A DNA stretch of 64,000 nt from Clostridia bacterium (GTDB taxonomy: Bacteria > Bacillota > Clostridia > UMGS1883). Shown here piece by piece: positions 7,812 to 64,000 of this stretch. Position 1 is the stretch's first letter, and each line of letters starts with the position of its first letter. The notes under the pieces are model-generated. The model did no database searches. It saw nothing but the letters and a program-made list of their open reading frames with translations, and was not told the origin of the DNA. The stretch is from NCBI GenBank assembly GCA_045545295.1, contig JAZQAO010000004.1, forward strand, positions 27,105-91,104. Direction: 5' to 3'. The position numbers were made by a program, and so were the translations under genes.

Positions 7812-8675
7812 ATGCAAATTTTTGATATGCATATTCATATGGGGTTCGCCGAGCCTCAGGCTGATATTATTGAGAGGATGACAAACGCTGGAATTTACGG
7901 CGGATGCATCTTTTCTTCTCCCCCGAAAGAATCAAAAGATATTACCTATAAGGATTTTGATGAAAGAATTTACGAGGTGCTCGACTTTACATCGCAATAC
8001 AAAGACAGACTGTTTCCTGTTTTGTGGATTCATCCTGACGAAGAAAACATATTGAAAAAAATAGAAATTGCAATTCAAAAAGGAATTGACGGTTTCAAAA
8101 TTATATGTAACGATTTCTATGTCGGAGACGAGAAGTGTCTTGTTCTTCTACAGGAAATTGCAGATTTGGGGAAACCCGTATTTTTTCATTCCGGAATACT
8201 GTGGGACGGAAACATTTCCTCTGCTTATAATCGTCCGCTGAACTGGGAAGCATTATTAAGAATTAAGGGGCTGAGGTTCTCTATGGGACACTGTTCATGG
8301 CCGTGGCACGATGAATGTATTGCTCTCTACGGGAAATTTCTGAATTCGCTTTTATCCGACAAAACAGCAGAAATGTTTCTTGACATCACACCCGGAACAC
8401 CCGAGGTATACCGTGAGGAGCTTTTGAAAAAAATGTTTTTATCAGGATATGATGTTAAAGGAAATATCCTCTTCGGTACCGATAGTAATGCAGAAAACTA
8501 TAATAGTGAATGGGCAAAAAAATGGCTTGATATTGACGGTAGACTTATGGATATACTTGGTGTAGATAATTCCGCCAGAGAAAAAATATACTTTGATAAC
8601 CTGATGTACTTTCTCGGAAAAAGCAAAAAGAAAAGAACATATACGCTCCCTACACCAGATAACCCTTCAATTTAA
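7812..8675 (+). CDS. amidohydrolase-family (metal-dependent TIM-barrel hydrolase) protein
   Basis: 287 aa, N-terminal DMHIH metal motif. Paralog of the N-terminal half of the 8844-10523 product. Confidence 0.75.
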   Translation: MQIFDMHIHMGFAEPQADIIERMTNAGIYGGCIFSSPPKESKDITYKDFDERIYEVLDFTSQYKDRLFPVLWIHPDEENILKKIEIAIQKGIDGFKIICNDFYVGDEKCLVLLQEIADLGKPVFFHSGILWDGNISSAYNRPLNWEALLRIKGLRFSMGHCSWPWHDECIALYGKFLNSLLSDKTAEMFLDITPGTPEVYREELLKKMFLSGYDVKGNILFGTDSNAENYNSEWAKKWLDIDGRLMDILGVDNSAREKIYFDNLMYFLGKSKKKRTYTLPTPDNPSI

Positions 8676-10539: not shown

Positions 10540-12498
10540 TTAACCTATTACAAGAAGTTTTGTCAGTCCCGTTGCGGAGAAAAATCTTGAAAACTGGTAA
10601 TTTGCAACACCGAACTGAGGTTCCGTCTTCTGTCCGGGCGGAACAAGATACATACGCTCACACTCAAGTTCTTCAATAACATAGGTCGGGTCCTCTTTTA
10701 GTTTATCAAGATGATGGCGCACCGTTGCAAAACGCGACGCCATAGCCGCGTTATGAAGCTCTGTTACCTCGCTTCCGAAAGCTTTGTTGTAGAAAAGATA
10801 GAATTCGCGTGCTTCTTTTTTGAAATTACCGTAAAGTTCTTCTATTACCTTTGATTCTTCGTAAAGCTTATCAAGCATTTCATTATCACGGGAATCATAA
10901 GCTTTTTTAAGTCTTATTCCGTAATCAGCCTTTACGGAAAGCAGATGCATAATACTCTTAATATATCTGAAGCCAGGTGCAAATAAGCCTTTATCAGGTC
11001 CTCTGTCTTTGAAATTTTCATACATTCTCTTATAGAAAGTGCAGGCATCTACACCCTCGATATACTTGTCAACAAGCCCTATCAACGGGTCATTGTAAAG
11101 AAGAGCAAAGGAGGTTTTGACATAATCCTGTTCAACTGGAACTATACTGTTTTTTCTGCCTGCGGGATAGTTCATTTCTTCAAGGTCAAGGATATCGTCT
11201 GCCGCAAAGCCGAAAATGTACTTAAAACGCTTTTTGATTTCAGCTTCATCATACACTCCGTTATAGTCCATCTCCGCATAAAGTAAAATGCCGTAAAGCG
11301 CCATTACAAGAACGCCCTCGCCGCCATCATTCCACAATGCCGCTAATACATCGCGTACACCGTTTCGCATACAGGCAGAAAGCCCCTCTTTAGCGGAATA
11401 AACAGATAAAAGGTATGCAGGAACAGGTCCGACCCACGTTTGGATACCGCCTGAATACAGAATATTATCTGTAATTTTCTTATGAATTTTCAGTACTTTT
11501 TCATTTTCCTCAGCATCGAACACTTCCTCACCGTTTTCCGATGCAAAAATAGAATGCTGCCAATAGTTGAGCCTTATTCCATCTGGGATACGGTCTAACT
11601 GCTCTTTTGTAAATTCTATGTCCGATGTATATCTCTTTCCCGTAAATATTTGAAAAAGAATGTCACTTGAAAGAGTTATTTCAAAGCCGTACTTATCAGC
11701 AATCTCCTTAACACGGGAAAGATGCTCACAGAATATATCAAACTGCGGTCTTAAACCGTTTTTCTTCTTATATACAACACAGCCAAAGGTCGGTGCCTCA
11801 TCCATTCCCACATCAATACGACGGCTTGTAAAAGAATCGCTTAACGATGCAAACATTTTATCGATAAGGTCGTATGTCTTTTCGCTGCCCACAAGCAAAG
11901 TGCTTACCGGGTTATAATCTTCCCGGCAGTCGCCCATAGTACTCCATTTAAGAATCTGTTCAGCGTGACCGAGAGTCTGTATACACGGGAAAAGCTCAAT
12001 TCCGAATACCTGTGCATATTTATCCATATCACGGATTTCTTCTTTTGTGTATCTTCCGCGCTGATAGCCAAAATACGGATACTCGGGAACTTCAAATATA
12101 TCCTCAAGGTATAAGGAAAGTGTATTAAGCCCCATAATTGCCTGCTTGCGTATTATTTCTTTAACTATTTCAGGTCGAAGCACCATACTGTAGGATACAT
12201 CAAGAAGTGCACCGTTAGTCTTAAAATTCGGGGTTTCCTTTTTATAAAAAGAATCTTTTCCGTCAGCAATTGCTTCACACAGAAGGCCCAAGCCACGGAA
12301 AAAACGGATCGGTTGGTTTCCGTAGGTTATAACTGCTTCTTTTTGTTTTAAAGAAATCTCTACAATCTCATCTTCTGCTTTTTTTACAGATACACATATA
12401 TCTGCCTCTTCCTTTTTTCCAACCGTAAAGCCAAGCTCGGACGAAAGCTCTATAATACCGTAATCAAGGGTATCTGCGGTTTCAAAATATAATATCAT
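10540..12498 (-). CDS. GH20 beta-N-acetylhexosaminidase (GH20C-like, cytoplasmic)
   Basis: 652 aa, no signal peptide. YLEDIFEVPEYPYFGYQRGRYTKEEI, PCIQTLGH and IDVGMDEA (the GH20 D-E pair) match my recollection of Streptococcus pneumoniae GH20C. Confidence 0.85.
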   Translation of the reverse strand: MILYFETADTLDYGIIELSSELGFTVGKKEEADICVSVKKAEDEIVEISLKQKEAVITYGNQPIRFFRGLGLLCEAIADGKDSFYKKETPNFKTNGALLDVSYSMVLRPEIVKEIIRKQAIMGLNTLSLYLEDIFEVPEYPYFGYQRGRYTKEEIRDMDKYAQVFGIELFPCIQTLGHAEQILKWSTMGDCREDYNPVSTLLVGSEKTYDLIDKMFASLSDSFTSRRIDVGMDEAPTFGCVVYKKKNGLRPQFDIFCEHLSRVKEIADKYGFEITLSSDILFQIFTGKRYTSDIEFTKEQLDRIPDGIRLNYWQHSIFASENGEEVFDAEENEKVLKIHKKITDNILYSGGIQTWVGPVPAYLLSVYSAKEGLSACMRNGVRDVLAALWNDGGEGVLVMALYGILLYAEMDYNGVYDEAEIKKRFKYIFGFAADDILDLEEMNYPAGRKNSIVPVEQDYVKTSFALLYNDPLIGLVDKYIEGVDACTFYKRMYENFKDRGPDKGLFAPGFRYIKSIMHLLSVKADYGIRLKKAYDSRDNEMLDKLYEESKVIEELYGNFKKEAREFYLFYNKAFGSEVTELHNAAMASRFATVRHHLDKLKEDPTYVIEELECERMYLVPPGQKTEPQFGVANYQFSRFFSATGLTKLLVIG

Positions 12499-12510: not shown

Positions 12511-14451
12511 TCAGCCCACAACTAAGTTTCTTGCAATTCCTGTTGATGAATAGAAACGTCCGAACTCATAGTCTACTATATTATATACTACCTTTTCAGT
12601 CGGAGGAACCATATATAATCGCTCATCCTCAAGCTCTTCTATTATATAAGATGGGTCTTCTTTCAGCTTGTCAAGATAGTAACGGACCGTCTCAAAACGT
12701 GATGCCATTGCACTGAGGCGGACTTCGATTATTTCGCTTCCCAGATTTTTCGCATAGAATAAATGAAATCTTTGTGCCGTTTCTTTGAAATCCTTATACC
12801 GTTTTTCAAGTTCTATAGCATCGTTATATAAAACTTCCAGCGCCTTTTCATCGCGGGCATCGTAAGCCTTTTTTAGTCTTAAACCGTAATCAGCCTTCAA
12901 CGGCAGTATGTATAAAATGCCCTTTATAAAATCAAATGCCGGTCCGAACAATCCGCTGTCTGTACCTCTGTCCTTAAATTCTCCATACATTTTTGTATAA
13001 AAGCCCTTCGCGTCATAATCTTCAACATGCCTGTCCATAAGACCAAGAATAGGGTCGCTGTAGAAAAGCGCTATTGCTGTCTTTTTATAATCTGCCTCCA
13101 CCGGAAGCTTGTCATTTATTCTTCCCTCGGGGAAGTTTATTTTTTCAAGTTCAATGATATCGTCCGCTTCAAAGCCGAATATGTACTTAAAACGTTTTTT
13201 AATCTCTGCTTCATCATAAAAGCCATTATAGTCCATTTCCGCATAGATCATCAGCGCATACATTGCAAAAACAAGAGGAGCTTCACCGTCGCTCCAGATT
13301 GAGCACAAAACCTCTTTTACATCATTCTTTATACAAGCTTCAAGCGCATTTTTTGCCGAGTAATTTGATAAAAGATATAAAAATACAGGACCAACCCAGC
13401 TTTGAACACCTCCCATATATAAAAGGTTATCAGTCATTGTCTGATGTATTTTGAGCACCTTTTCATTTTCCGCAGCATCAAAAACTTTCTCGTCTTTTTC
13501 CGGAGTATAGATACCATATCTCCAATAGCAAAGCTTTACGCCCTCGGGAATAAGCTTTAATTGTTCTTCTGTAAAAGTAATATCGGAGGTATAATGCCCA
13601 CCTGTCATCATCTTGAAAAACATATCGCTTGAAACCATTATTTCAAAGCCATATTTATCTGCGATTTCCTTTACTTTTTCTATATGACGGCAGAATAATT
13701 CAAACTGAGGCTTAAGACCATTCTTATACTTATAATTTCCAAGACCCATCAGCGATGCTTCGTCCATACCGACCTCAAGATGCTTTGAAGAAAAGCTGTC
13801 TGCAATTGAAGCCATCATTCTGTCAATAAGGTAGTATGTTTTTTCATCATCAAGCATAAGTGTATTTATTGTATCACGATACTCTGTCATAGAATCCCAC
13901 TTAAGTGCCTGTTCAAAGTGACCAAGAGTTTGAATAGATGGAAAAAGTTCGATACCGAAAACTTGTGCATATTTATCCATATCACGGATTTCTTCTTTTG
14001 TGTATCTTCCGCGCATATGGCCAAAATAAGGGTATTCCGGCACTTCAAACATTTCCTCAAGATAGAACATAAATGTATTAAGTCCCATAATAGCCTGTTT
14101 GCGAAGCATTTCCTTTATTATTTCAGGACGGTGAACAAGTTTTCTTGCAAAATCAAACATTGATCCATTCATTGTGAAATTCGGGATTTCCTTTTTTGAA
14201 AAAACTTTTTTTCCGTCGCTTACAGCCTCGCACAAAAGTCCGAGACCCCTGTAAAATCGTATAAGCTGACCACCGTAGACAATGCTTGCCTCTTTTCCGT
14301 TAAGGCTAACCTCAACACAATCTTCATCTGTTTCAGAAACGCTGACAATTATGTCAGCGTTTCCCTTTTCTCCTTTTTCAAAGCCAAGTTCACAGGAAAT
14401 TTCTCTAATTCCATCAAGAAGTTTATCTGCATTCTCAAAATATAAAATCAT
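12511..14451 (-). CDS. GH20 beta-N-acetylhexosaminidase (tandem paralog)
   Basis: 646 aa, collinear with the previous product (YLEEMFEVPEYPYFGHMRGRYTKEEI, LEVGMDEA). Confidence 0.85.
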   Translation of the reverse strand: MILYFENADKLLDGIREISCELGFEKGEKGNADIIVSVSETDEDCVEVSLNGKEASIVYGGQLIRFYRGLGLLCEAVSDGKKVFSKKEIPNFTMNGSMFDFARKLVHRPEIIKEMLRKQAIMGLNTFMFYLEEMFEVPEYPYFGHMRGRYTKEEIRDMDKYAQVFGIELFPSIQTLGHFEQALKWDSMTEYRDTINTLMLDDEKTYYLIDRMMASIADSFSSKHLEVGMDEASLMGLGNYKYKNGLKPQFELFCRHIEKVKEIADKYGFEIMVSSDMFFKMMTGGHYTSDITFTEEQLKLIPEGVKLCYWRYGIYTPEKDEKVFDAAENEKVLKIHQTMTDNLLYMGGVQSWVGPVFLYLLSNYSAKNALEACIKNDVKEVLCSIWSDGEAPLVFAMYALMIYAEMDYNGFYDEAEIKKRFKYIFGFEADDIIELEKINFPEGRINDKLPVEADYKKTAIALFYSDPILGLMDRHVEDYDAKGFYTKMYGEFKDRGTDSGLFGPAFDFIKGILYILPLKADYGLRLKKAYDARDEKALEVLYNDAIELEKRYKDFKETAQRFHLFYAKNLGSEIIEVRLSAMASRFETVRYYLDKLKEDPSYIIEELEDERLYMVPPTEKVVYNIVDYEFGRFYSSTGIARNLVVG

Positions 14452-44628: not shown

Positions 44629-44700
44629 ATTATACACCACTGCTCACTATATTTATACTACCACTTTCTTTTTGAAGTTGCAATAATATTTAAGAATGTA

Positions 44701-44794
44701 AAAAAGAAGCGTACCGCTTCACCCGTGTCGCACTCTCACAGAAGTGTAAACACAGTTTCCTGCGTCTTAATTTGACGCAAATTCCTATACGGTG
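44701..44794 (-). repeat. multi-hairpin repeat family, copy A
   Basis: Minus-strand reading: CACCGTATAGGAATTTGCGTCAAATTAAGACGCAGGAAAC...GAAGCGGTACGCTTCTTTTT. About 87% identical to copy C by eye. Confidence 0.8.
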
Positions 44795-47067: not shown

Positions 47068-47169
47068 TTTCTCCTCCTGTATGCAATATTTATAATCCGT
47101 ATAGTTATACCACTTTTTTGTTAGATTGTCAAGTTTCGCTGTATTAAATAAGCATTTACAAAATCCAAC

Positions 47170-47240
47170 GATGTCGCACCCTCGCAGGAGTGCAAACAAA
47201 GTTTCCTGCGTCATAATTTGACGCAAATTCCTATACGGTG
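47170..47240 (-). repeat. multi-hairpin repeat family, copy B (lacks the terminal hairpin)
   Basis: Nearly identical to copy C over ~70 nt (GTCGCACCCTCGCAGGAGTGCAAACAAAGTTTCCTGCGTCATAATTTGACGCAAATTCCTATACGGTG on the plus strand). Confidence 0.85.
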
Positions 47241-48545: not shown

Positions 48546-48666
48546 ATATTACACCTCTTATATATTTATTTCTACAACTTCACCTGTTTCCGTTTATAAC
48601 GGCGGTAAGGATTTCGCTGTATTTAACAATAACATTAACCTTTTTAACAAGTCTGTCTTTACCGTT

Positions 48667-48759
48667 AAAAAGAAGCGTGCCGCTTCACCCACGTTGCACC
48701 CTCGCAGGAGTGCAAACAAAGTTTACTGCGTCATAATTTGACGCAAATTCCTATACGGG
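48667..48759 (-). repeat. multi-hairpin repeat family, copy C (full length)
   Basis: Three hairpins (TGCGTCA/TGACGCA; GCACTCCT/AGGGTGC; GAAGCG/CGCTTC plus T5 on the minus strand). Confidence 0.85.
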
Positions 48760-51346: not shown

Positions 51347-53893
51347 TTATTCCACTGCGTTTTCAGAGGGAGCTTCAGTATTATTTTCAGCTGTATTTTC
51401 TGAATTTTCTGTTTCTTCCTCAATTTCTTCCGGCTCTTCGTGCTCTGTTACACCGATAGAAACTACCTTTACACCTTCTTTAAGGCGCATAAGCCTTACA
51501 CCCTTGGTGCTTCTTCCGATAGAGCTGATGGTATTTGCGGCAATTCTTATAATAATACCTTCTGAAGTGATAAGAAGAATATCCTCTTCATCAGATACAG
51601 TGCGAAGACCTATAACATTACCTGTTACGTCACTGCACTTATAGTTCTTAACACCCACACCGGCTCTTGACTGAACACGGTATTCGTCTATATCTGTTCT
51701 CTTACCGTAACCGTTTTCTGTTACTGTAAGAAGCTCGGTACCATCAATTGCAAGGCACATACCTACAACAAAGTCCCCATCACGCAGGTTAATTGCCTTA
51801 ACACCGCGGGTTACTCTGCCCATACTGCGGACATCCTTTTCGTTAAAGCGGATAGACATACCGCTGTATGTTCCTACAATGACGTCATTTTCACCGTTTG
51901 TAAGCTCAACACGAATAAGCTCGTCACCCTCGTCAAGTACGATACCGTTGATACCGCCTTTACGTGATGTATTGTAATCTGTAACGGCAGTTTTCTTGAT
52001 TATACCGTTTCTTGTGCACATAAGAAGATACTTATCATCCTCAAACTGAGGAAGAGAAATAACTGCAGTAACCTTTTCCTCTTTTTCAATGGGAAGAAGG
52101 TTAACAATTGCACTTCCCTTTGCCTGTCTGCCTGCTTCGGGAATCTGATAGCCTTTTATTCTGTACATTCTGCCCTTATCTGTAAAGAAGAGCATATTTG
52201 TATGAGTTGAAGCAACAATGATATTTTCCACAAAGTCCTCATCACGGGTTGAAAGTCCCTTAATACCCTTACCGCCTCTGTGCTGGCTCTGATAGGTTGA
52301 TGCAGGAATTCTCTTAATATATCCGAAATGAGTCAGTGTATAAACACTTTCCTCTTCTTCGATAAGGTCTTCAACATCAATTTCTGTCATTACATTTTCA
52401 ATATTAGTCTTTCTTTCGTCACCGAATTTATCGCGGATTTCGGAAAGCTCTTCCTTAATTTTTTCATTAAGAAGATTCTTGTCTGCAAGAAGTGCCTTAT
52501 ACTCTGCAACGAGAACTGTAAGGTTATTGAATTCGTCTTCAATTTTCTCTCCGTTCAGTCTCTGGAGCTGTGCAAGACGCATATCAAGTACGCTCTGTGC
52601 CTGAATTTCAGAAAGACCGAAGCGCGCCATAAGATTTTCTCTTGCATCGTCATAAGAATTACGTATAACTTCTATAACCTCGTCAATGTTACTGAGTGCA
52701 ATACGAAGACCTTCCAGTATGTGCATTCTTGCTTCTGCTTTTTCAAGGTCGTACTGTGTACGGCGTGTAACTATTTCTTCCTGGAAAGCAATGAAGTTAC
52801 GAAGGACATCTTTAAGTCCCATTGTTTTGGGCTTTCCGTCTTCAATAGCAAGCATATTTACAGAGAAGCTGTCCTGAAGACGTGTGTATTTATAAAGCTG
52901 ATTAAGTACAACGTAAGGATTTGCGTCACGCTTAAGGAATATTTCAAGACGAAGTCCTATACGGTCTGATGAATGGTCTTCAATATCGGAAAGTCCCTCA
53001 ATTCTCTTTTCCTTAACAAGATTTGCAATGGATTCAACAAGCATTTTCTTGTTAACCTGATAGGGAAGTTCTGTAATAATTATCGAAGATGTACCGTCCT
53101 TGTGTTCCTCTATATCTGCCTTCGCACGGATAATTATCTTACCTCTGCCTGTGTTATAAGCACTTCTTATACCACTTCTTCCCATAATAGTACCGCTTGT
53201 GGGGAAGTCCGGACCCTGGATGTATTCCATAAGCTCCTCAACAGTGATGTCGGGATTATCAATCTGTGCAATAACACCGTTAAGTACCTCTGTAAGGTTA
53301 TGAGGAGGTATATTTGTAGCCATACCTACGGCAATACCGCTGCTTCCGTTAATGAGAAGTGTGGGAATTCTTGTAGGAAGAACAGTTGGTTCTTTTCTCT
53401 TTTCGTCAAAGTTAGGTACAAAGTCAACGGTATTCTTCTCTATATTTTCAAGAAGAACGTTAGCCAGCTTACTCATTCTCGCTTCTGTATAACGGTAAGC
53501 AGCCGGCGGGTCACCGTCAACTGTTCCGAAGTTACCGTGACCGTCAATCAGCATATAACGCATGGAGAAATCCTGCGCCATTCTTACCATTGCATCGTAT
53601 ACGGATGCGTCACCGTGGGGATGATATCTACCGATAACATTACCGACGGTAGTAGCAGATTTGAAGAAAGCTTTATCATAAGTAAGGTTTTCTTCATACA
53701 TAGAGTAAAGAATTCTTCTGTGAACAGGCTTAAGACCGTCACGCACATCGGGAAGTGCACGGCTCACAATAACACTCATTGCGTAGTCAATGAATGCCTC
53801 TTTCATTCTTTTTTCAATATCAATATCTACAATGGTTTGTGTGTCGAAGTATTCTTCAAAATGAGAATCTTCGTAATTCTTATGTTTAGCCAT
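51347..53893 (-). CDS. gyrA: DNA gyrase subunit A
   Basis: 848 aa. [26 protein letters not shown] and the catalytic Tyr region (AAYRYTE). Confidence 0.97.
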
Positions 53894-53926
53894 TTTATAT
53901 TAATTCCTTTCTATAACTGAAAGATT

Positions 53927-54112
53927 TAAAGGGGTTTGTTAAGGGGTATCCCCTTGACATAAAATCCGTTAAAAACGGGGGCGCGTACCTCGTTTTTAAC
54001 TCCTTACAAGGTCTACCGCGGTGAGCGGTGCGCGAGCGAAAGACCTTCACTCGCAACAAATGCTTTTACGAAGTAAAACTTTTGTTGCGAAAGGATGACT
54101 CTGTCATCCTTT
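53927..54112 (-). repeat. ~183-bp structured repeat, copy S1 (gyrB-gyrA spacer)
   Basis: Its reverse complement matches 63144-63326 with about 8 mismatches over the ~165-nt core. Contains at least 4 strong hairpins. Confidence 0.9.
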
Positions 54113-56049
54113 TATACATCGAGGTTTGTTACATACTGTGCATTTTCTTCAATGAATTCACGTCTGGGCTCAACCTCATCACCCATAAGGATGCTGAATA
54201 TCTGGTCAGCCTTTTCGGCATCCTCAAGAGTAACCTTAAGGAGTATTCTGTTCTTCGGGTCCATAGTTGTTTCCCAAAGCTCTTCAGCATTCATTTCACC
54301 AAGACCTTTATAACGGCTTATTTCTACTTTTGCATTAGCATCACCGTTTTTAAGCTCTTCACTTATCTGATCTCTTTCTTCATCACTGAACGCTACCTGA
54401 GATTTTTTACCTCTTGAAAGCTTATAAAGGGGTGGCTTTGCAAGATATATATGCCCTGTTTCCACAAGTTCACGCATAAATCTGAAGAAGAATGTAAGGA
54501 GCAGCGTCTGAATATGTGCACCGTCGACGTCGGCATCCGCCATAATAATTACTTTGTCGTAACGGAGCTTTTCTATATTGAATTCACCGCCTATACCTGT
54601 TCCCAATGCCTGAATAACAGGTGTAAGCTTTTCATTTCCGTAAACCTTGTCTTCTCTCGCCTTTTCTACGTTAAGCATTTTACCCCAGAGAGGAAGGATT
54701 GCCTGATATTTACTGTCACGTCCTTTTTTTGCACTGCCTCCCGCACTATCACCCTCGACAATGTAAATTTCCGTCATTGTAGGATCTTTGGATATACAGT
54801 CGGTAAGCTTACCGGGAAGTGTAGAAGAACCAAGGGGAGTTTTTCTTGTAGCCTCTCTCGCTCTTCTTGCGGCAAGTCTTGCACGTGATGCCATAAGAGC
54901 TTTTTCAATAATAGCCTTACCAACGTTTGGATTTTCCTCAAGAAAATCTGCAAGCTTTTCCTTAACCATACTCTCAACAAGAGTACGCATTTCACTGTTT
55001 CCGAGCTTTGTTTTAGTCTGTCCTTCAAACTGAGGCTCTTCAAGCTTAACGGAAATTACGGCTATAAGACCTTCACGGGCATCTTCACCTGTCAGCTCTT
55101 CGTCATCCTTTATAAGCTTGTACTTTTTACCGTAGTCTAAAAGCACCTTTGTAAGAGCAGCCTTAAAGCCTGTTTCATGCATACCTCCCTCTGTTGTGGA
55201 AATATTGTTTGCAAATGACTCTATAACTTCGTCATAGCCTGTATTCCACTGGAGAGCAACCTCTGCCATACTTCCGTTTTTCTCACCGCTTACGTAAATT
55301 ACGTCACTGTGAACTTCCTCAAGAGTATCTTTTCTCTTCTTTTTATCGTTAAGAAGATAAGAAACGAAGTTTTTAATACCGCCTTCGTACTGGAGAATTT
55401 CTTCTCTCTTTTCTTCTCTGTCATCCTTGAATACAATTTTAATTCCGCCGTTAAGAAACGCCTGTTCACGAAGTCTCTTTAAAAGAACTTCATAATCATA
55501 AACTGTTTCATCGAATATCTCACCGTCTGCCCAGAAAGTAACTTGCGTACCGGTTCTGTCAGTTTTTCCGATAGTATGAACTTCACCGTCGGGAACACCT
55601 CTTTTATAGCTCTGAAACCACACGTTTTCACCGTCGTGTACTTCTACCTCAAGCTTTGTTGAAAGAGCATTAACAACAGATGCACCAACACCGTGAAGAC
55701 CGCCGGAAACCTTGTATCCTCCACCGCCGAACTTACCGCCTGCGTGAAGCACGGTAAAAATAACGTCAATTGTGGAGATACCCATCTTCGGATGAATACC
55801 GTGAGGCATACCACGTCCGTTATCCTTTACTGTAACGGAGCCGTCAGCATTAAGACTTACGTCAATCTGCGTGCAATAGCCTGCAAGTGCTTCGTCAATA
55901 CTGTTGTCTACTATTTCGTAAACAAGATGATGAAGACCTCTTACCGACGTTGAACCGATGTACATACCGGGTCTTTTACGTACAGCCTCAAGTCCTTCCA
56001 GTACCTGTATTTGATTTTCGTCGTAGGAATTATTAACTTTCTGTTCCAA
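54112..56049 (-). CDS. gyrB: DNA gyrase subunit B
   Basis: [24 protein letters not shown] begins ~10 residues after the TTG at 56049. The 34-codon upstream extension in the track overlaps the remB-like gene and has no GyrB similarity. Confidence 0.95.
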
Positions 56050-56356
56050 TTGAGTCAATCCTTTCTGCTCTCTTATAAAGTGTCTGCGATGAAATCTGCG
56101 ACACAAATATATTCTTTTCTTTTTTATTTTTATCAATGTCGGATGCGACACGGTTGAAGCGGCACGCTTCTTTTTTATTTTTTGTAATTATAAACGTTTT
56201 CGGAATATCGTAAGAAATATATTCTATATTTCCTTTTTTGTCGTTTATTTTTAAAAATTCTCTTGTTTTTTTACTTATAGACGTGTTTTCAAGATCAAAT
56301 ATACCTACAATATCTTTTTTACTTAATATTTTTCCTTCACCTATATGCAAAAACAT
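56033..56356 (-). CDS. DUF370/RemB-like small protein
   Basis: 107 aa in the conserved position between recF and gyrB in Firmicutes. ..[12 protein letters not shown].. motif. Confidence 0.7.
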
Positions 56357-57432
56357 CAGACAACCTTACCGTCCTTTACATTTATAATATTGGTGTTTTC
56401 ATTTATAAAAGAATTTTCAAGGTCTGTGCAGGTAATTATAATCTGTTTTCCTTTAATCTGAGAAATAAGAAAATCACGTCTTTTTTTATCAAGCTCACTC
56501 AATATATCGTCAAGAAGCATTATAGGATAATCTCCCGTTTCTTCTTTAATTATTTCCATCTGTGCCGACTTAAGACAAAGCACTGCTGTTCTTATCTGTC
56601 CCTGGCTGGCATAGGACTTTGCAATCTTTCCGTTTATTGAAAAATCAACCTCGTCACGGTGTATTCCCGCCATACAAAAGAGGTTTTCTTTTTCTTTTTC
56701 TTTGTATTCTTCAAGCTTTCTTAAAAAATTCTCTTTTATTTCATCAATACTTTCACCCATTTTTACACAGGGAGAGTACCTGACTGTAAGAATTTCCTTA
56801 TCGGACGAAATTTCTTTCTGAAGCTCTGCCGCTTTTTCTTCCATCCTCTTTATATAACTTGAACGCATAAGCATAATTTTGCTGCCGCTTTCGGCAAGCT
56901 TTTCGTTCCATATATCAAGAGTTGTATAATCTCTCATTTTTAAAAGAGCCGTTTTCTGATTTATTATGTTCCTGTAATGAATAAGCTCTTTTATAAACTG
57001 AGGACGAAGTGGCATAATAGAGCTGTCCACAAATCTTCTTCTTACATCGGGAAGTCCTTTTATAACTGACATTTCATCAGGTGTGAATACAACGCAGATA
57101 AAATTACCAAGAAGCTGACTTGTTTTTTTAAGTTCTATTTCATTTAAGTAAATTTCTTTGCGTTTTCCGCTTAAAAACTTAATTTCACCCTCATAATTTC
57201 TTTCATTATTAAAAAACGAAAGTGCAATACGGCTTTCTTTTTCACCGTCTTTTATAACTTCACGCCCACCGGCGCGGAAGCTCCTTCCGTAGGAAAAATA
57301 ATAAACCGCCTCGAGTATGTTTGTTTTTCCCATACCGTTGTCACCGTAAATTATATTTACCTCATCCCCGAAGGAAATTTTTTCATTTTCATAATTTCTG
57401 AAATTATAAAGCTCTAAAGATTCGGCTCTCAT
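56356..57432 (-). CDS. recF: DNA replication and repair protein RecF
   Basis: 358 aa with Walker A GDNGMGKTN and the ABC signature region. Confidence 0.95.
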   Translation of the reverse strand: MRAESLELYNFRNYENEKISFGDEVNIIYGDNGMGKTNILEAVYYFSYGRSFRAGGREVIKDGEKESRIALSFFNNERNYEGEIKFLSGKRKEIYLNEIELKKTSQLLGNFICVVFTPDEMSVIKGLPDVRRRFVDSSIMPLRPQFIKELIHYRNIINQKTALLKMRDYTTLDIWNEKLAESGSKIMLMRSSYIKRMEEKAAELQKEISSDKEILTVRYSPCVKMGESIDEIKENFLRKLEEYKEKEKENLFCMAGIHRDEVDFSINGKIAKSYASQGQIRTAVLCLKSAQMEIIKEETGDYPIMLLDDILSELDKKRRDFLISQIKGKQIIITCTDLENSFINENTNIINVKDGKVV

Positions 57433-57641
57433 CCTATTACAAATTCCTCATCTTCTATTTTAAATTTATCACCTTTATAAAGCTTTCTGCCGCGTCTGAG
57501 CTCTTTTTCGCCGTTAACGGTAACTAACCCTTCTAAAATCATTTCCTTGGCGTGTGCGCCATTTTCAGCGATTCCTGCGTATTTTAAAGCAGAGTCAAGC
57601 TTTATGTATTCTGTGTTAATTGAAATAATCATTTTTTTCAC
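57429..57641 (-). CDS. yaaA: S4-domain RNA-binding protein YaaA
   Basis: 70 aa in the conserved dnaN-yaaA-recF context. Confidence 0.85.
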   Translation of the reverse strand: MKKMIISINTEYIKLDSALKYAGIAENGAHAKEMILEGLVTVNGEKELRRGRKLYKGDKFKIEDEEFVIG

Positions 57642-57902
57642 AATTTTCCTTTTTATTTTTTTATCTGTTAAAGGAAATAGGAAAAAATGTTCAGAACGGA
57701 CAAACTGAACTGCGGCTTGCCGCAGGTTACCCGAAGCTGTATGTGTATACAGCGAGAGGTGAAGTTTGTTCGTAATTCGTTGGCATCAATTCAGAAATCC
57801 GCTTTGCGGATTTCAACCTTAAAAAATATTTATCAATTTTATAATAAAATTATATTAAAACTGTCGCCAACGAATGGTCTGGGCATTTTTAACATTTCCG
57901 CC

Positions 57903-59003
57903 TCATATTCTTACGGGAAGAACCATATAAAGATACGAGTCATCCTCTGTTGAATTTATTATAAGAGGATTAAAAGGGGAATTCATCTTAAGCTCAATCT
58001 CCTCACTGTCACATCTTGAAACGGCATCGTGAAGATATTTATAGTTAAATCCTATTTCTATATCTTCATCAAAGTAATCACATTCTACAATGTCATTTAC
58101 CTTACCAAGCACTGTTTCACAGCTGATTGATATTTTTCCGCCACCAAATCTGAAGCGAACGCAGTTTTTGCTTACTTCATCAATAATAGGCTCAACTCTT
58201 TCAATAGCTTTACTGAAAGCATAGCAATCTGTTTTAACCACATACTTTGATTCTGCAGGAATTGTATTTCTGTAAGAGAAAAATTCACCTTCTATAAGGC
58301 GTGATGTTATAATAACACCCTCACCCTCTATAAGAGCATAATTATCACTGAAGGATATGCTTATATCCTTATCGCTGCTTCCGCTTATAATTTTTGCAAT
58401 TTCGCTTTGTGTTTTACCGGGAATTATAAATTTAGCATCCTCGTGATCGCCTTCAAGCTCCATTTTAGTAAGAGCAAGCCTGTAACCGTCAACAGCTACA
58501 ACAGTAAGAGTGTTGTTTTCTATTTCGTAAAGAGATCCTGTAAGAATCTTTCTTGCATTGTCCATTGAAACTGCAAAAAGAGTTTTTCCTATTATTTCAC
58601 GAAGCTTCTCACTGTTTAAAACGATGGTGCTCTTTTTTGCAATCATTGGAGGCTGAGGAAATTCATCTGCATTCAGACCAACTATTTTGTAGTCTGCATT
58701 TTTACATATAATGGAAACATTGCCCTTTTCATTGGTTGTTATTTCACAAACATCTTCAGGAAGCTTTCTTACAATGTCGGAAAACATTTTTGAATTAAGT
58801 ACAATACTTCCCTCTTCCTGAATATTTGCGCTTATGGAGGTTCTTATTGAAATTTCAAGATTATTGCCAAGTAATGTCACAATACCCCCCTCTGCTTTGA
58901 GAAGTATACCTTCAAGATGAGGGATTGGTGATTTAACGGCAACTGCCTTCGAAACAATACCTATTGCTTCAGAAAGATTTTTTGTATCGCAGAAAAATTT
59001 CAT
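57903..59003 (-). CDS. dnaN: DNA polymerase III beta sliding clamp
   Basis: 366 aa in conserved context, with a typical three-domain length. Confidence 0.95.
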   Translation of the reverse strand: MKFFCDTKNLSEAIGIVSKAVAVKSPIPHLEGILLKAEGGIVTLLGNNLEISIRTSISANIQEEGSIVLNSKMFSDIVRKLPEDVCEITTNEKGNVSIICKNADYKIVGLNADEFPQPPMIAKKSTIVLNSEKLREIIGKTLFAVSMDNARKILTGSLYEIENNTLTVVAVDGYRLALTKMELEGDHEDAKFIIPGKTQSEIAKIISGSSDKDISISFSDNYALIEGEGVIITSRLIEGEFFSYRNTIPAESKYVVKTDCYAFSKAIERVEPIIDEVSKNCVRFRFGGGKISISCETVLGKVNDIVECDYFDEDIEIGFNYKYLHDAVSRCDSEEIELKMNSPFNPLIINSTEDDSYLYMVLPVRI

Positions 59004-59023
59004 TTTAAAATCATCCTTTCAGT

Positions 59024-59195
59024 CTTATATAATAATATATATATTATATAAAAGTATAAGTAGTAAAGTTAGTTGTGTGAATAAACTGTCATATCCCTTT
59101 CAGAGACCGGGAAAGACGGATTTAAAAGCTGTGAATAAAATGTGTAAGTAAAAATAATTAAAATTTAACCGTACTGTTAATTAACAATAATTGTG
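59024..59195. other. oriC part II (dnaA-dnaN spacer): AT-rich unwinding-like tract plus DnaA-box-like sites
   Basis: TATATAATAATATATATATTATATAAAAGTATAAG at ~59026-59060. TGTGAATAA at 59076-59084 and 59130-59138. Confidence 0.65.
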
Positions 59196-60500
59196 TTAAT
59201 TACCTGCACCCTTTATATCATTTATAAGTCCTTCAATATTTATTTTTATTCCCATATCATCATCCATCAGTTTTGAAATCTGTTTGTGTGCATAAATTGC
59301 AGTAGCATGGTCCTTTTCAAAAACTGCACCAATTTTAGGGAAAGAGTAGTCAATAACCTCTCTCATAAGATACATTGAAACCTGACGTGCAAAAGCAATT
59401 TCCTTTGTTTTCTTCTTAGAGTATATATCTTCTTTCTTAATGTTATAGAACTTAGCGCAGGCTTCTATTATATAATCCGGAGTTATTTTCTTGTCGTTGC
59501 TGTCGCCGTAGTCCTTCAGAGCCTCCATAGCGACGTCAATTGTTATTTCTTTATTTATAAGTCCGCGGTAAGCAACAACTCTGTTGAATACACCTTCAAG
59601 CTCACGGATGTTTGATTTTATTTTCTGAGCTATAAAATCTATAATGTCGTCTCCTATGATAACACCGTCGTCCTGTGCTTTTTTACGGAGAATAGCAACT
59701 CTTGTTTCGTAATCCGGAGGCTGTATGTCACAGATAAGTCCCCATCCGAATCTTGAACGGAGTCTTTCTTCAAGAGTTTTGATTTCATTTGGCGGACGGT
59801 CGCTTGTAAGAACAATCTGCTTATTGGCTTCGTGCAGAGCATTGAATGTATGAAAAAACTCTTCTTCCGTAGATGTTTTTCCTGCTATAAACTGAATATC
59901 GTCAACAAGCAGCACATCAATATTTCTGTACTTATCGCGAAATTCCTGATTTGTTTTGTCACGAAGGGAATTTATAAGGTCGTTTGTAAAAGTTTCAGCA
60001 CTTACAAATTCAATTCGGGCATTGGGGTTTTCACCCTTTATGTAGTTACCGATAGCGTGCATAAGATGTGTTTTTCCAAGACCTACACCACCGTAAATAA
60101 AAAGCGGATTGTAAGCATAAGCCGGAGCTTCCGCAACTGCAAGTGATGCACACTGTGCAAAACGGTTAGAGTTACCTACAACGAAATTATCAAAGGTGTA
60201 TTTATCGTAAACACTCGGGTTTTCCTGCCTTTTTTGAACTGCCGGCAAATTTTCCGAAAGAACAAACTCAATATTATAAAGCTTGCCTGTAATTTCGCTT
60301 ATGGTGTACTTAATAAGGTCGCGGTAGCGCATCTCAACCATATTTTTTATAATTGTGCTTCCTACGGAAAGAGTAAAAGTATCATCCGTAATGCTGACCG
60401 GCTTAATATCCTTTATCCAGGTGTTATAGCCGACCTGAGAAACCTCATCTTCGAGCATGAAGAGGCATTCTGTCCATAAATTCATCAAATCAAAATCCAT
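59196..60500 (-). CDS. dnaA: chromosomal replication initiator DnaA
   Basis: 434 aa with Walker A GGVGLGKTHL and a C-terminal DNA-binding domain. Confidence 0.97.
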   Translation of the reverse strand: MDFDLMNLWTECLFMLEDEVSQVGYNTWIKDIKPVSITDDTFTLSVGSTIIKNMVEMRYRDLIKYTISEITGKLYNIEFVLSENLPAVQKRQENPSVYDKYTFDNFVVGNSNRFAQCASLAVAEAPAYAYNPLFIYGGVGLGKTHLMHAIGNYIKGENPNARIEFVSAETFTNDLINSLRDKTNQEFRDKYRNIDVLLVDDIQFIAGKTSTEEEFFHTFNALHEANKQIVLTSDRPPNEIKTLEERLRSRFGWGLICDIQPPDYETRVAILRKKAQDDGVIIGDDIIDFIAQKIKSNIRELEGVFNRVVAYRGLINKEITIDVAMEALKDYGDSNDKKITPDYIIEACAKFYNIKKEDIYSKKKTKEIAFARQVSMYLMREVIDYSFPKIGAVFEKDHATAIYAHKQISKLMDDDMGIKINIEGLINDIKGAGN

Positions 60501-60734
60501 AAAATATTTCCCTCACCAAAAAAAAATTTAAAAAAGTTATAAACAGCGCTGTTAATAAAAGATGTTAATAAGTGGCTCTGTACTGCATAAATCGACAAAA
60601 AAACTGTGAATAACTGTACAAAAGTTAAAAAATCAGAGCAAAAACTGTGAATAACTCTCTTATTTATCTATCTAATTAAATATAACATATAGTATGTCGA
60701 AAATCAAGTCCAAACAAAAAAAATAAAATAAATG
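60501..60734. other. oriC part I / dnaA promoter region with DnaA-box-like sites
   Basis: TGTGAATAA at 60605-60613 and 60646-60654. TGTTAATAA at 60550-60558 and 60563-60571. Confidence 0.65.
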
Positions 60735-60763
60735 TTGACAAAAAAAATTTTTTTTGGTATATT
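60735..60763 (+). promoter_or_regulatory. rpmH promoter
   Basis: TTGACA (60735-60740), 17-nt spacer, TATATT (60758-60763). Confidence 0.65.
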
Positions 60764-60835
60764 AAGTTGGTATCGTTATGGTAAACTAGCTAAAATTAGC
60801 CCTTATGGCTTTTATTTTTAAGGAGGTGCAGATAA

Positions 60836-60970
60836 ATGCTCAGAACTTATCAGCCTAATGTAAGAAAAAGAAAAAAAGACCACGGTTTCAGAAAGAGAAT
60901 GAGTACCGCTAACGGCAGAAAGGTGCTCAGAAGACGCCGTCAGAGAGGTAGACGTGTTCTTTCTGCATAA
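60836..60970 (+). CDS. rpmH: 50S ribosomal protein L34
   Basis: Own translation: [53 protein letters not shown]. Below the ORF-track size cutoff. Confidence 0.95.
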
Positions 60971-60997
60971 GTGCAGAAAGAACACACTCTGTGTGTT

Positions 60998-61342
60998 ATG
61001 AAAGTTATTTCAATTAAAGAAAACAGTGATTTTAAAAGACTCTATTACAGGGGTAAGTCTGTGGTAAAGGGAAACATCGCCCTTTATTACAGAAAAAACG
61101 CTTTTTCTTACACAAGACTCGGTCTGACAGTTTCTCCCAAGGTGGGAAATGCCGTCACAAGAAACAGAATAAGGCGGCTTATCAAAGAGAATTACAGACT
61201 TTCAGAAGGTTTACTTATGGGTTATGATATCGTAGTAGTAGCCAGAAAAAGGTCAAAGGACGCATCCTTTGACGATATTAAAAAAGATTTGAAAAGTGCG
61301 CTTTGTGAAAGCGGGCTTTTAAAAGGGAATGAGACTGATTAA
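60998..61342 (+). CDS. rnpA: ribonuclease P protein component
   Basis: [20 protein letters not shown]... with a [10 protein letters not shown] motif. The track start 60971 is a GTG abutting the rpmH stop; I prefer the ATG at 60998. Confidence 0.9.
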
Positions 61343-61547
61343 AAAAATTTTTATCGGTATTATCAAATTTTACAGGAAATATATATCTCCTATGAAAAAA
61401 CCTTGTTGCCGCTTTACACCCACTTGTTCAGAGTATGCCATGCAGGCTTTTGAAAAGTATGGAGTGATAAAGGGGCTTTATTTGTCTGTAAAAAGAATTT
61501 TAAGGTGTCAGCCTTTTTGCAAAGGCGGATACGACCCTGTTCCGTAA
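61329..61547 (+). CDS. yidD: membrane protein insertion efficiency factor YidD
   Basis: 72 aa with [11 protein letters not shown] and [14 protein letters not shown] motifs. Confidence 0.9.
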
Positions 61548-61583
61548 CCGGCAGAAATCTCTGCCATTAAAAGGAGATTAAAA

Positions 61584-62444
61584 ATGAATTTTTTGTATGT
61601 ATTTGCAAAGCCTTTATCCTGGATAATAAGGCCTATTTATGAATGGATCGGTGACTACGGTCTTACTCTTATTGCAGTAACTCTTCTCATAAAAATTATA
61701 ACAATTCCTTTTACTATAATGTCGCAGAAGAGTACAGCTAAAACACAGCTTATTCAGCCTGAACTTCTGAAAATTCAGGAAAAATATAAAAACGACAAAA
61801 ATATGCAGAGCATAAAGATGCAGGAGCTTTACAGAAAGAACAATGTAAATCCTTTAGGCGGATGTCTCCCCCTTATATTACAGATGTTCGTTCTTTTCGG
61901 ATTTATCCGCGTTGTATATGATCCCCTTACTTATATGCTCGGTCTTACTGCAGAGCAGATTGATACAATTAAAGAAGCACTTAAAATAGAAGGTCATATA
62001 TATCAGGTAACACTTTGCGGTGTAGAAGGTTTCGCTCAGAAGCTTAAAGAAGTTGCTCCGAATATTGGTGCAATAGATTTTGATTTCTTTGGAATTGACC
62101 TTACTCTTACTCCAAAGGACCATATAATGAACTGGACTGTATGGATATTCCCTGCTCTTGCAACAATTTCAACTTTCCTTTCTTCTCATATAACAAAGAA
62201 GCAGATGGAAAGTAAACAGGCAGGTAACAAAAAGAAAAACTCTGCTGAAGACCAGGCACAGAATATGAGTGATACAATGATGAAAATTATGCCTATAATG
62301 ACAGCATTTTTCACTGTTACGATGCCCGTTGGAATGAGTCTTTACTGGTTTATATCAACTGCATTCCAGTTAGTTCAGCAAACTGTTATGAATGATTATA
62401 TAAACAATAAAATAAAAGCAGAAATAATGGCGAAAGGAAAGTAA
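61584..62444 (+). CDS. yidC: YidC/Oxa1-family membrane insertase
   Basis: 286 aa in conserved context. NPLGGCLPLILQMFV motif. Confidence 0.9.
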   Translation: MNFLYVFAKPLSWIIRPIYEWIGDYGLTLIAVTLLIKIITIPFTIMSQKSTAKTQLIQPELLKIQEKYKNDKNMQSIKMQELYRKNNVNPLGGCLPLILQMFVLFGFIRVVYDPLTYMLGLTAEQIDTIKEALKIEGHIYQVTLCGVEGFAQKLKEVAPNIGAIDFDFFGIDLTLTPKDHIMNWTVWIFPALATISTFLSSHITKKQMESKQAGNKKKNSAEDQAQNMSDTMMKIMPIMTAFFTVTMPVGMSLYWFISTAFQLVQQTVMNDYINNKIKAEIMAKGK

Positions 62445-62448
62445 TTAG

Positions 62449-63141
62449 ATGATAATTATAGAAAAAAGCGGTAAAACCATTGATGAAGCCGTTAATGCAG
62501 CACTTCTTGAGCTTAATGTGGACAAGGACAGCGTTGAAATAGAAGTTATTAACGAAGGAAAAAGAGGTATCCTCGGACTTGGTGCGGAAGATGCCGTAGT
62601 AAGAGTAAAAATGGAGGAAACTCCTCTCTCAAAAGCAGAAAAATACGTTGCATCCGTTATGGAAAAGTTCGGTATTGAAACAGAACTCAAGTCTTCTTTT
62701 GAAGATGAAACAGTAAATATAGAAATAGTTGGTGACAGCGAAGCAGTCGGTAAAGTAATAGGCAGACGCGGTGATACTCTTGACGCTCTCCAGTACCTTA
62801 CATCACTTGTTGTAAATAAAGATGAAGAGGATTATATAAGAGTTACAATTGATACCGAAAATTACAGAAGCAAGAGAGAGGAAACTCTTATAAAGCTTGC
62901 AAAGAGAATGGCAGGTATTGTGTCAAAAAGCAGAAAGAGCATTACTCTTGATCCTATGAATCCTAACGAAAGAAGAATTATACATTCTGCACTTCAGGAA
63001 TACAGAAATGTAACAACATATTCTACAGGTAAAGAGCCTAACCGTTGTGTGGTTATTACAACAAAGAAAAGAGAATATGATGAAAATTACGTTTCAAAGT
63101 ATCGTTACAATAGAAAAGAAAACGAACTCGAAGGAGTTTAA
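62449..63141 (+). CDS. jag: Jag/KhpB RNA-binding protein (Jag_N, KH, R3H)
   Basis: 230 aa. GKTIDEAVNAALLELN N-domain and a C-terminal R3H (PMNPNERRIIHSAL). Confidence 0.9.
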   Translation: MIIIEKSGKTIDEAVNAALLELNVDKDSVEIEVINEGKRGILGLGAEDAVVRVKMEETPLSKAEKYVASVMEKFGIETELKSSFEDETVNIEIVGDSEAVGKVIGRRGDTLDALQYLTSLVVNKDEEDYIRVTIDTENYRSKREETLIKLAKRMAGIVSKSRKSITLDPMNPNERRIIHSALQEYRNVTTYSTGKEPNRCVVITTKKREYDENYVSKYRYNRKENELEGV

Positions 63142-63143
63142 TC

Positions 63144-63326
63144 GGATGGCAACGCCATCCTTTCGCAACAAAAGTTTTACTTCGTAAAAGCATTCGTTGC
63201 GAGTGAAGGTCTTTCGCTCGCGCACCGCTCACCGCGGTAGACCTTGTAAGGTGTTAAAAACGAGGTACACGCCCCCGTTTTTAACGGAATTTATGTTAAG
63301 GGGTATCCCCTTAACAATCCCCTTTA
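63144..63326 (+). repeat. ~183-bp structured repeat, copy S2 (jag-mnmE spacer)
   Basis: Inverted with respect to S1. It starts with the jag terminator hairpin GGATGGC/GCCATCC. Confidence 0.9.
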
Positions 63327-63494
63327 GTTAGAAGAACTTCTTCGGTTCAGTTCGTGCGTTCTGCACTACTTTTGCTCGTTTTTAAGTGCTCGGAATTAAA
63401 TATGGTGAGAAAGAGGTGAAAGGTCTTTCTTATAAGATAAAATCTTATGAGAAGTATCGTTTTACCTCTTATTTTTTACATTGGAAGTGAATTT

Positions 63495-64000
63495 ATGATT
63501 GAAAATACTACAATTTGTGCCCTGTCTACCCCGCGGGGTAAAGGTGGAATTGCCGTTATAAGAGTAAGCGGTGAAAAAGCCCTTGAAATAACAGAAAGAG
63601 TTATAAAATCAAATAAAAAAATTACCGAGGCTGACGGGTACACAATAGTTTACGGAAAGGCAGTTTTTAATAATATCACTATTGATGAATGTCTTGTAAG
63701 CGTATTTCGTGCTCCTAACTCCTTTACCGGTGAAAATGTGTGCGAAATAAGCTGCCACGGCTCAATGGTAAGTGTTGAAAGAATTATAGACGCACTTCTG
63801 GAAAACGGTGCTTCCATGGCAGGCAAAGGTGAATTTACAAAAAGAGCTTTTCTTAACGGAAAGCTTTCCCTTACAGAGGCGGAAGCTGTAAATGATGTTA
63901 TAAATTCGAAGACCGACGAAGCTCTTTATGCCGCAGTAAACAGACTTGAGGGCTCAATTACGAAGCCTATCATAAAAATAAGAGAAGAGCTTCTCGATTT
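63495..64000 (+). CDS. mnmE: tRNA modification GTPase MnmE (N-terminal part; runs off the window)
   Basis: Own translation: MIENTTICALSTPRGKGGIAVIRVSG...SFTGENVCEISCHGS. Confidence 0.9.
   Translation, partial: MIENTTICALSTPRGKGGIAVIRVSGEKALEITERVIKSNKKITEADGYTIVYGKAVFNNITIDECLVSVFRAPNSFTGENVCEISCHGSMVSVERIIDALLENGASMAGKGEFTKRAFLNGKLSLTEAEAVNDVINSKTDEALYAAVNRLEGSITKPIIKIREELLD

Follow-up and report, generated by a model that had tools for sequence, protein, structure and literature searches.

Repetitive extragenic palindromic (REP) sequences and BIMEs are dispersed, multi-copy, structured elements, often located between cistrons or behind a stop codon and cotranscribed with their neighbors, which affect mRNA stability and are prone to recombination; REP sequences close to a stop codon also affect translation termination. 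The REP units are single palindromes of 20 to 40 nt that share a conserved GTAG at the 5' end; they are found in either orientation, frequently as clusters of alternating units, and have been linked to the REP-associated tyrosine transposases (RAYTs). BOX of Streptococcus pneumoniae, ERIC/IRU of the enterobacteria, and bcr1 of the Bacillus cereus group are modular intergenic repeats of 100 to 200 nt with stable predicted RNA structures, transcribed with the genes next to them and variable between strains. Here, we describe a repeat of ~185 nt in a 64,000-nt stretch of DNA (the window) from a Clostridia bacterium (assembly GCA_045545295.1, contig JAZQAO010000004.1, forward-strand positions 27,105 to 91,104), in which two copies, A and B, lie in inverted orientation on either side of the dnaA region. 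These copies are almost certainly two members of a lineage-specific, dispersed, modular, and hairpin-rich intergenic family of uncultured gut Clostridia, which is located at the stop codons of housekeeping genes, co-oriented with these genes and usually intercistronic, and they are inverted at oriC only through the divergence of the genes.

Like REP and BIME sequences, the element is dispersed, multi-copy, structured, extragenic, and recombining; it differs from them in its length, in its five distinct hairpins (P1 to P5, followed by a C-rich tail) with invariant loops, and in having one strict orientation. The GTAG rule does not apply to it, GTAG being present in P3 of type-A copies only and CCAG in type-B copies. 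With BOX, ERIC/IRU, and bcr1, the element has in common its size, modularity, predicted structure, and a presence that varies between relatives, but not its sequence, as neither Rfam nor blastn gave a match. Furthermore, target-site duplications or terminal inverted repeats are features of bcr1 and of repeats resembling miniature inverted-repeat transposable elements (MITEs), whereas neither was found in the element, and the strictness with which it starts at the stop codon and its near-100% co-orientation exceed what is described for BOX, ERIC/IRU, or bcr1.

In the window, a repeat search delimited the two copies as inverted arms of 191 nt that are 92% complementary and 9018 nt apart (Table 1). 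When copies A and B were aligned pairwise, 9 mismatches were found between the start of P2 and the tail, the other differences falling within P1 or the flanking sequence, and the longest exact run common to both copies was 56 nt (54002-54057, equivalent to 63196-63251). A core 30-mer matched twice in the window versus 0.00 times expected (100 shuffles), and no third copy was detected in the 64-kb window by blastn or by a filter-free covariance-model scan. Single-strand folds of the two copies reached -69.1 and -67.4 kcal/mol (z = -5.2 and -5.8 versus shuffles). The original prediction, made from the letters of the window, had described near-identical inverted repeats around a 9-kb block, a series of strong stems, and a compensatory pair between the first hairpins (GGATGAC/GTCATCC versus GGATGGC/GCCATCC); the repeats and the compensatory change were borne out, and the stems were found in both copies. 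Its gene map also held by the coordinates of the open reading frames (ORFs), the order being gyrA(-), gyrB(-), recF, yaaA, dnaN, dnaA(-) / rpmH(+), rnpA, yidD, yidC, jag(+), mnmE(+). The first hairpin, which it had taken for the terminator of the upstream gene, has to be read differently. P1 belongs to the repeat, since it is kept in most copies of other species, and it is not a canonical terminator because only UUU comes after the hairpin (CUUUCG, three U residues); a scan for intrinsic (Rho-independent) terminators called P1 in neither copy. DnaA-box-like TTATTCACA sites at 59076, 59130, 60605, and 60646 and a change of sign of the GC skew near 60 kb make it plausible that the replication origin, oriC, lies between copies A and B.

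The exact core 24-mer of the element, CGCTCGCGCACCGCTCACCGCGGT, was found at 48 loci in 23 species-representative metagenome-assembled genomes (MAGs), with up to 5 loci per MAG; the MAGs, which carry the label Clostridia or Oscillospiraceae, were recovered from the gut of ruminants, other animals, and humans. A second pattern without the 24-mer gave 6 further loci in one metagenome. When a covariance model derived from 46 copies was searched against the collected loci and close relatives of the window genome, 62 copies were detected, among them some without the 24-mer, second copies at three of the loci, and those of the close relatives. The element was not found in viral contigs (searched with two patterns), phage genomes, or plasmids (blastn). 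In keeping with the earlier failure to assign the repeat to a known RNA family, the whole window gave 0 matches to Rfam release 15 at gathering thresholds, and with E values of up to 10 allowed, the region 63100-63520 gave only chance-level edge matches (CRISPR-DR60, E = 3.6; MIR4359, E = 9.9). Full-text searches of the literature with sequence strings of the element yielded no match, and keyword searches yielded nothing specific; neither the text of a human-microbiome structured-RNA catalogue (PMC8040213) nor the first 200 of its 408 supplement files contained a match.

The proteins encoded in the flanks, identified with NCBIfam, placed the copies at about 18 housekeeping junctions (given as upstream>downstream gene): gyrB>gyrA (9 copies, as genomes or contigs), atpG>atpD (5 copies), jag>mnmE and grpE>dnaK (4 copies each), mnmE>mnmG and ybeY>era (3 copies each), dnaN>yaaA (3 copies and 2 truncated ones), pfp>mutS2, nrdD>nrdG, infB>rbfA, and tsf> (2 to 3 copies each), and dnaK>dnaJ, >prfB, ylbF-like>mutS, pgk>tpiA, polA>coaE, radC>, and efp> (1 copy each). 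The usual location was between two cistrons of one operon, with some copies at operon ends. All copies with a resolvable flank had the orientation of their upstream gene and began at its stop codon. In 53/62 copies, the end of a co-oriented upstream ORF of at least 60 codons lay in a range from 5 nt ahead of the P1 start to 23 nt beyond it, with one outlier of 25 nt; in most of the remaining 9/62 copies, the flank was cut by the end of the locus or the 5' part of the element had diverged or was deleted. The TGA within the P1 arm GGATGAC was the stop codon itself in 9 copies, and in copies without P1, P2 began 1 to 7 nt past the stop codon. Two loci carried copies in opposite orientation 2 to 4 kb apart, each of which followed its own upstream gene; the orientation of the element therefore tracks transcription and not replication, and a replication-linked orientation as in IS200/IS605 was rejected on the same observation. 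Copies A and B are inverted because the element is co-oriented with its upstream gene on both sides of the divergent origin. Since the family is dispersed, multi-copy, and located at about 18 unrelated gene junctions in at least 23 MAG species, the origin-specific meaning given to the pair by the original prediction fails, and dispersal of this kind is what that prediction itself had named as the finding that would speak against it.

Structure was assessed in a model-based alignment of the 62 copies. Standard pairing was found in 95.8% of cells, versus 36 to 56% when partners were slid by 1 to 3 columns, and changes on both sides were found in 32/54 pairs (345 cells); the observed values were reached by 0/500 column shuffles. 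A MAFFT alignment, which was not fitted to structure, gave 93.6% paired cells and 29 pairs changed on both sides. Covariation was found in P1, P2, P2b, P3, and P4, and P5 showed little covariation despite its sequence conservation. In copies that had not been selected via the 24-mer, P3b switched as a whole unit between ACCGC/GCGGU and GGCAC/GUGCC. Selection, which had been one of the explanations offered earlier for the identity of the two copies, was borne out as selection on structure by this strong covariation. Unpaired stretches (UUUCGCUCGCGC, UCACC, AAGGWG, GAGGUACACGCC, and CUUAACAAUCCCC) were nearly invariant across copies. Modular variants consisted of P1, P4, and P5 only, were without P5 and the tail, or had P2 deleted between CTTTCGC direct repeats. 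Consensus folds consisted of local hairpins only, strung like beads, and lacked both a closing helix and end-to-end pairing. In two copies (L010 1257-1472 and L040 1684-1938), an extra hairpin of ~55 nt (GGGGACAGGTCAATTTTTGTTACACCTGAGGCTTACAAAAATGTCCCC) was nested in the loop of P2.

Several other identities of the element were considered and rejected. A riboswitch or gene-specific leader does not agree with some 18 unrelated gene pairs, the missing closing helix, and the copies at operon ends. The ORFs of the window copies were not conserved, and loop indels that are not a multiple of 3, together with the covariation, break any common reading frame of a small protein. A pseudoknot between loop UCACC and junction GGUG was discarded, as half of the copies have GGAG without compensation. 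P4 resembles an integron attC site, but by inspection its order GTTRRRR...YYYYAAC is the reverse of R''...R' in attC, and the flanks are core genes and not cassettes.

Taken as a whole, the data are probably best explained by a REP/BOX-like intercistronic structured repeat that acts in cis and is apparently undescribed. As to how it acts, we tentatively propose an RNA that serves in cis as punctuation or as a binding platform, a mechanism for which we claim less than even confidence. Downstream genes often begin 16 to 40 nt past the element, and because this leaves several of them no room for a promoter, the element would be transcribed within the polycistronic mRNA; no sense-strand promoter for the downstream genes was found, nor was a promoter-like site between copy A and the start of gyrA. 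P1, at or over the stop codon, would form the 3' hairpin of the upstream cistron and be melted by terminating ribosomes. The array of P2 to P5 with its invariant loops (UUUCGCUCGCGC, UCACC, GAGGUACACGCC, and CUUAACAAUCCCC) would provide a structured 5' region for the downstream cistron and could be the binding platform for a hypothetical conserved trans-acting factor, for instance, an RNase, the ribosome, or some RNA-binding protein. In this way, the element may uncouple neighboring cistrons in their stability or expression, as REP/BIME and BOX elements do. A sense-oriented structured RNA inside operons is also what EAR, put, and the rrn boxB-boxA antitermination RNAs represent; the element differs from these in size, a nut or boxA site being much smaller, and no match to EAR or any other family was found in Rfam. 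The tail CCCCUUAACAAU, which comes after a hairpin, resembles the boxA of Escherichia coli rrn, CUCUUUAACAAU, a likeness that we regard as a lead only. The boxA of Firmicutes differs from that of E. coli.

A bolder form of this proposal, which we regard as somewhat unlikely, is that the element represents a new class of regulatory RNA, in which a dedicated trans-acting partner recognizes the invariant loops and core operons are placed under one posttranscriptional control. The operons under this control could be those of replication (dnaN and gyrBA); chaperones (grpE-dnaK-dnaJ); ATP synthase; translation factors (infB/rbfA, tsf, efp, prfB, era, and mnmEG); and nrdDG, mutS, and mutS2. Such control might operate by base pairing of sense with antisense RNA from different copies, or by detection of translation termination at the stop codon that P1 contains.

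A number of observations weigh against a REP/BOX-like repeat that acts in cis as mRNA. A function of the sense strand is a prediction from the lack of promoter room, and the proposed trans-acting partner is a hypothetical one. The invariance of the loops across species suggests a function more specific than generic mRNA stabilization. In nearest-neighbor analysis, the results were mixed, some copies being closest to their ortholog in another species and others to a copy in the same genome. The remaining points concern the strand. In sense coordinates, 100 A.C mismatches were counted versus 42 G.U pairs, concentrated at few positions of P2, P4, and P5; an excess of A.C over G.U is the opposite of what is usually seen in a sense-strand RNA under selection. 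The antisense strand had the lower minimum free energy in 56/59 copies, by a mean of 8.3 kcal/mol (Wilcoxon p = 3e-11), and its RNAalifold consensus was also lower (-63.1 versus -56.9 for the sense strand).

This strand asymmetry would be accounted for by a family of antisense small RNA (sRNA) genes, an explanation that we consider unlikely. It holds that a promoter in P5/J4-5 drives an RNA of ~150 nt (P4'-P3'-P2') that ends at P1 as a bidirectional terminator; the copies being ~90% identical, each RNA could pair with the sense copies of all operons and direct their processing in a GadY-like manner. The likeness to the cis-antisense system GadY/gadXW consists of the intercistronic spacer, the better-folding antisense strand, and a promoter-like site in about half of the copies. 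GadY is encoded at a single locus and has a mapped promoter and terminator, whereas the element has 5 or more near-identical copies per genome, and its promoter and terminator are candidates only. Besides the lower free energy in single copies and consensus, the explanation is favored by the variation at the key positions of P2, P4, and P5, which keeps pairing in the antisense strand only (92 A.C versus 9 G.U in sense coordinates), and by the invariant loops, which in the antisense strand read as GNRA-type motifs (GCGA and GGUGA). P5 itself has this antisense bias but would be excluded from the RNA, and P1 favors the sense strand (16 G.U versus 4 A.C), P2b likewise being opposite to P2, P4, and P5. 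The promoter-like sequence, TTGTTA-N17-21-TA(A/T)A(A/T)T, was found in 34/62 copies, a frequency within chance expectation, was absent or degenerate in the other 28/62, and mostly had a suboptimal spacing of 18 to 19 nt. A U-tract after P1 in the antisense direction was inconsistent among the copies. Finally, an antisense sRNA would leave the stop-codon adjacency of every copy unexplained, and its promoters would fire into essential operons.

Comparison with close relatives of the window genome showed that copies are gained and lost. Relatives L055 and L057, whose Jag is 91% identical to that of the window, carried the element at gyrB>gyrA and unrelated sequence at jag>mnmE; L058 (88%) carried it at gyrB>gyrA only; and L059, L060, and L061 (84 to 85%) had compact, empty gyrB>gyrA spacers of 39 to 42 nt, with jag>mnmE and mnmE>mnmG empty as well. 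The exact ends of the insertion could not be read from these sites, as empty relatives carried unrelated sequence at jag>mnmE and the flanks at gyrB>gyrA were too diverged. In the start region of gyrA (window 53879-53926), a short hairpin between Shine-Dalgarno (SD) and anti-SD sequences (CUUUC...GAAAGGA) was present in filled and empty spacers alike, the latter exemplified by L059 1932-1973 and L060 1833-1871, and the element is inserted behind the stop codon of gyrB and ahead of this native hairpin.

Exchange between copies was apparent from copy A. Over P1 to P3, copy A was 93% identical to copy B and only 64 to 69% identical to its orthologs at gyrB>gyrA in the closest relatives, L055 and L058; from P4 to the tail and flank, it was 94 to 95% identical to these orthologs and 87% identical to copy B. 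Copies A and B had in common a derived change of a G-C to a U-A pair in P3, with a single mismatch across P2-P3. Judged from these identities, copy A is a mosaic whose P2-P3 appears to have been donated by the mnmE-side type. Copy B kept the orthologous sequence (94% identical to L027 over P1 to P3), and the exchange is therefore taken to have been a nonreciprocal gene conversion and not a double crossover. Copies within a genome are evidently homogenized in this way, and recent gene conversion, one of the sources of the high identity considered in the original prediction, found support in the mosaic. For the nrdD>nrdG, ybeY>era, pfp>mutS2, dnaN>yaaA, and jag>mnmE copies, the best match was the ortholog, which points to vertical descent of such ortholog-closest copies. 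At one locus (L019 1-231), the C-terminus of a pgk-like gene (EFLEGKELPGIVALQDK*) was joined via a copy of the element to the mnmE leader and mnmE; this join is either a real recombinant between element copies or a chimera of the short-read assembly (k = 141).

The presence or absence of copies in close relatives, their dispersal and number, and the truncated modular variants would also be expected of a selfish nonautonomous mobile element (MITE-like or other) without host function, which in our view is improbable. Its structure would serve mobility, for example, as folded single-stranded DNA for a transposase encoded elsewhere, and selection would have removed all but the harmless insertions, namely, those directly behind a stop codon and in a single orientation. 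That the mRNA strand is the one that folds less well, that sister repeat families occupy the same spacers, and that about 8 to 10 of 48 copies are no more than ~600 nt away from the end of a contig, as near-identical repeats would be expected to be, agree with such an origin. The ends of the element, GGATGRC... and ...AACAATCCCC, are not reverse complements of each other, so that there are no terminal inverted repeats, and there was no signal of a target-site duplication: the longest word common to the 14-nt flanks had a mean length of 4.04 versus 3.81 after random re-pairing (P = 0.12, n = 27). No transposase was found nearby, nor was a copy found in the phage, plasmid, and viral collections. 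Moreover, many copies occupy the orthologous junction in different species and differ there by compensatory changes, which indicates long vertical persistence under purifying selection.

Homologous inversion of the 9-kb gyrB...dnaA-oriC-rpmH...jag block as the role or main consequence of the pair, the reading of the original prediction, is mechanistically possible by crossover but extremely improbable, for although the pair brackets the putative oriC, has recombined by gene conversion, and offers RecA a usable exact run of 56 nt, the family is not origin specific, the exchange was nonreciprocal, relatives lack one or both copies, no recombinase gene was found in or adjoining the block, where only housekeeping genes lie, and no orientation variant was seen, all 7/7 contigs from relatives covering the block (L055, L056, L058 to L061, and, partially, L057) having the canonical gyrA-gyrB...dnaA/rpmH...jag-mnmE order and none of the 62 copies (9/9 at gyrB>gyrA and 4/4 at jag>mnmE canonical) having a jag>gyrA or gyrB>mnmE junction.

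Table 1. Positions in the window of the two copies, their hairpins, and the adjoining genes
Feature	Position	Strand	Description	Remarks
Copy A	53927..54117	-	gyrB>gyrA spacer	Covariance-model match 53921-54121, 216.5 bits
Copy A P1	54093..54109	-	GGATGAC-AGA-GTCATCC; begins 2 nt past gyrB stop codon	All 7 P1 pairs covary
Copy A P2 and nested P2b	54051..54090	-		Changes on both sides in 8/10 P2 pairs
Copy A P3	54008..54047	-	AAGGTC/GACCTT	Encloses invariant loop UUUCGCUCGCGC and P3b (ACCGC-UCACC-GCGGU)
Copy A P4	53968..54000	-	GTTAAAAACG...CGTTTTTAAC	Conserved loop
Copy A P5 and tail	53931..53957	-	TCAAGGGG-ATA-CCCCTTAA, then C-rich tail CAAACCCC	Sequence conserved, little covariation
Putative gene-conversion tract in copy A (P2-P3)	54002..54090	-	1 mismatch to copy B, unlike L055/L058 orthologs	Includes 56-nt exact run 54002-54057
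Copy B	63136..63326	+	jag>mnmE spacer	Covariance-model match 63132-63332, 220.8 bits
Copy B P1	63144..63160	+	GGATGGC-AAC-GCCATCC; begins 2 nt past jag stop codon	
Copy B P2/P2b	63163..63202	+		
Copy B P3/P3b	63206..63245	+	Invariant loops	
Copy B P4	63253..63285	+		
Copy B P5 and tail	63296..63322	+	Tail CAATCCCC	
gyrA	51347..53893	-	Downstream gene of copy A	Start codon 37 nt past element
gyrB	54112..56151	-	Upstream gene of copy A	Stop codon 54112-54114
jag (khpB/eloR)	62449..63141	+	Upstream gene of copy B	Stop codon 63139-63141
mnmE, 5' part	63495..64000	+	Downstream gene of copy B	Continues beyond the window

Just upstream of the start of mnmE, the window contains a long, imperfectly paired hairpin with a U-run behind it (63412-63477, + strand), which was nearly invariant in the window, L027, L043, L055, L057, and L058, with or without the element, and which we read as a conserved mnmE leader or attenuator; its sole match was a sub-threshold one to Rfam SpF43 (28 bits versus a gathering score of 70). 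Other repeats were present in the spacers of this lineage. A second family, with a core of ...ACGAACTTCACCTCTCG-hairpin-CTTCGGGTAACC-hairpin-GTTCAGTTYGTMCGTTC... and no Rfam match, was found in the window at 57677-57813 (-), where it fills the 261-nt dnaN>yaaA spacer, and as a fragment behind copy B at 63340-63374 (+), in L058 (10770-10877 and 12487-12595), and in L055, L030, L034, L037, L046, and L027. A third family of ~95 nt, with copies 77 to 87% identical, was located in the window at 44698-44792, 47144-47238, and 48664-48758 and, partially, at 56144-56188. Its - strand sequence is CCGTATAGGAA...GCGTC-loop-GACGC..., with the terminator GAAGCGGTACGCTTC-TTTTTT at the end; the copies lie ~50 to 75 nt past the stops of - strand genes, and the motif TTCCTATAC adjoins terminators in L036 and L039 as well. 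At least two further dispersed spacer families fit a genome whose spacers have been colonized by structured repeats. Inverted segments that are 71 to 75% identical (8077-8483 versus 9849-10255, within oppositely oriented ORFs) and a direct repeat that is 81% identical (11935-12177 versus 13888-14130, within two adjacent long - strand ORFs) probably represent paralogous genes.

If the interpretation of the element as a dispersed intercistronic repeat is correct, a clade of abundant uncultured gut Clostridia would carry an undescribed structured element of ~185 nt at stop codons within its most essential operons. The analysis also shows that a conspicuous inverted repeat flanking a replication origin can be a by-product of gene orientation. 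The element would break short-read contigs and may yield chimeric joins such as that in L019, and recombination between its copies, here across oriC, would bear on genome stability. With its invariant loops, its coupling to stop codons, and its strand asymmetry, the element would constitute a well-defined candidate for a new element of intercistronic control in these bacteria.

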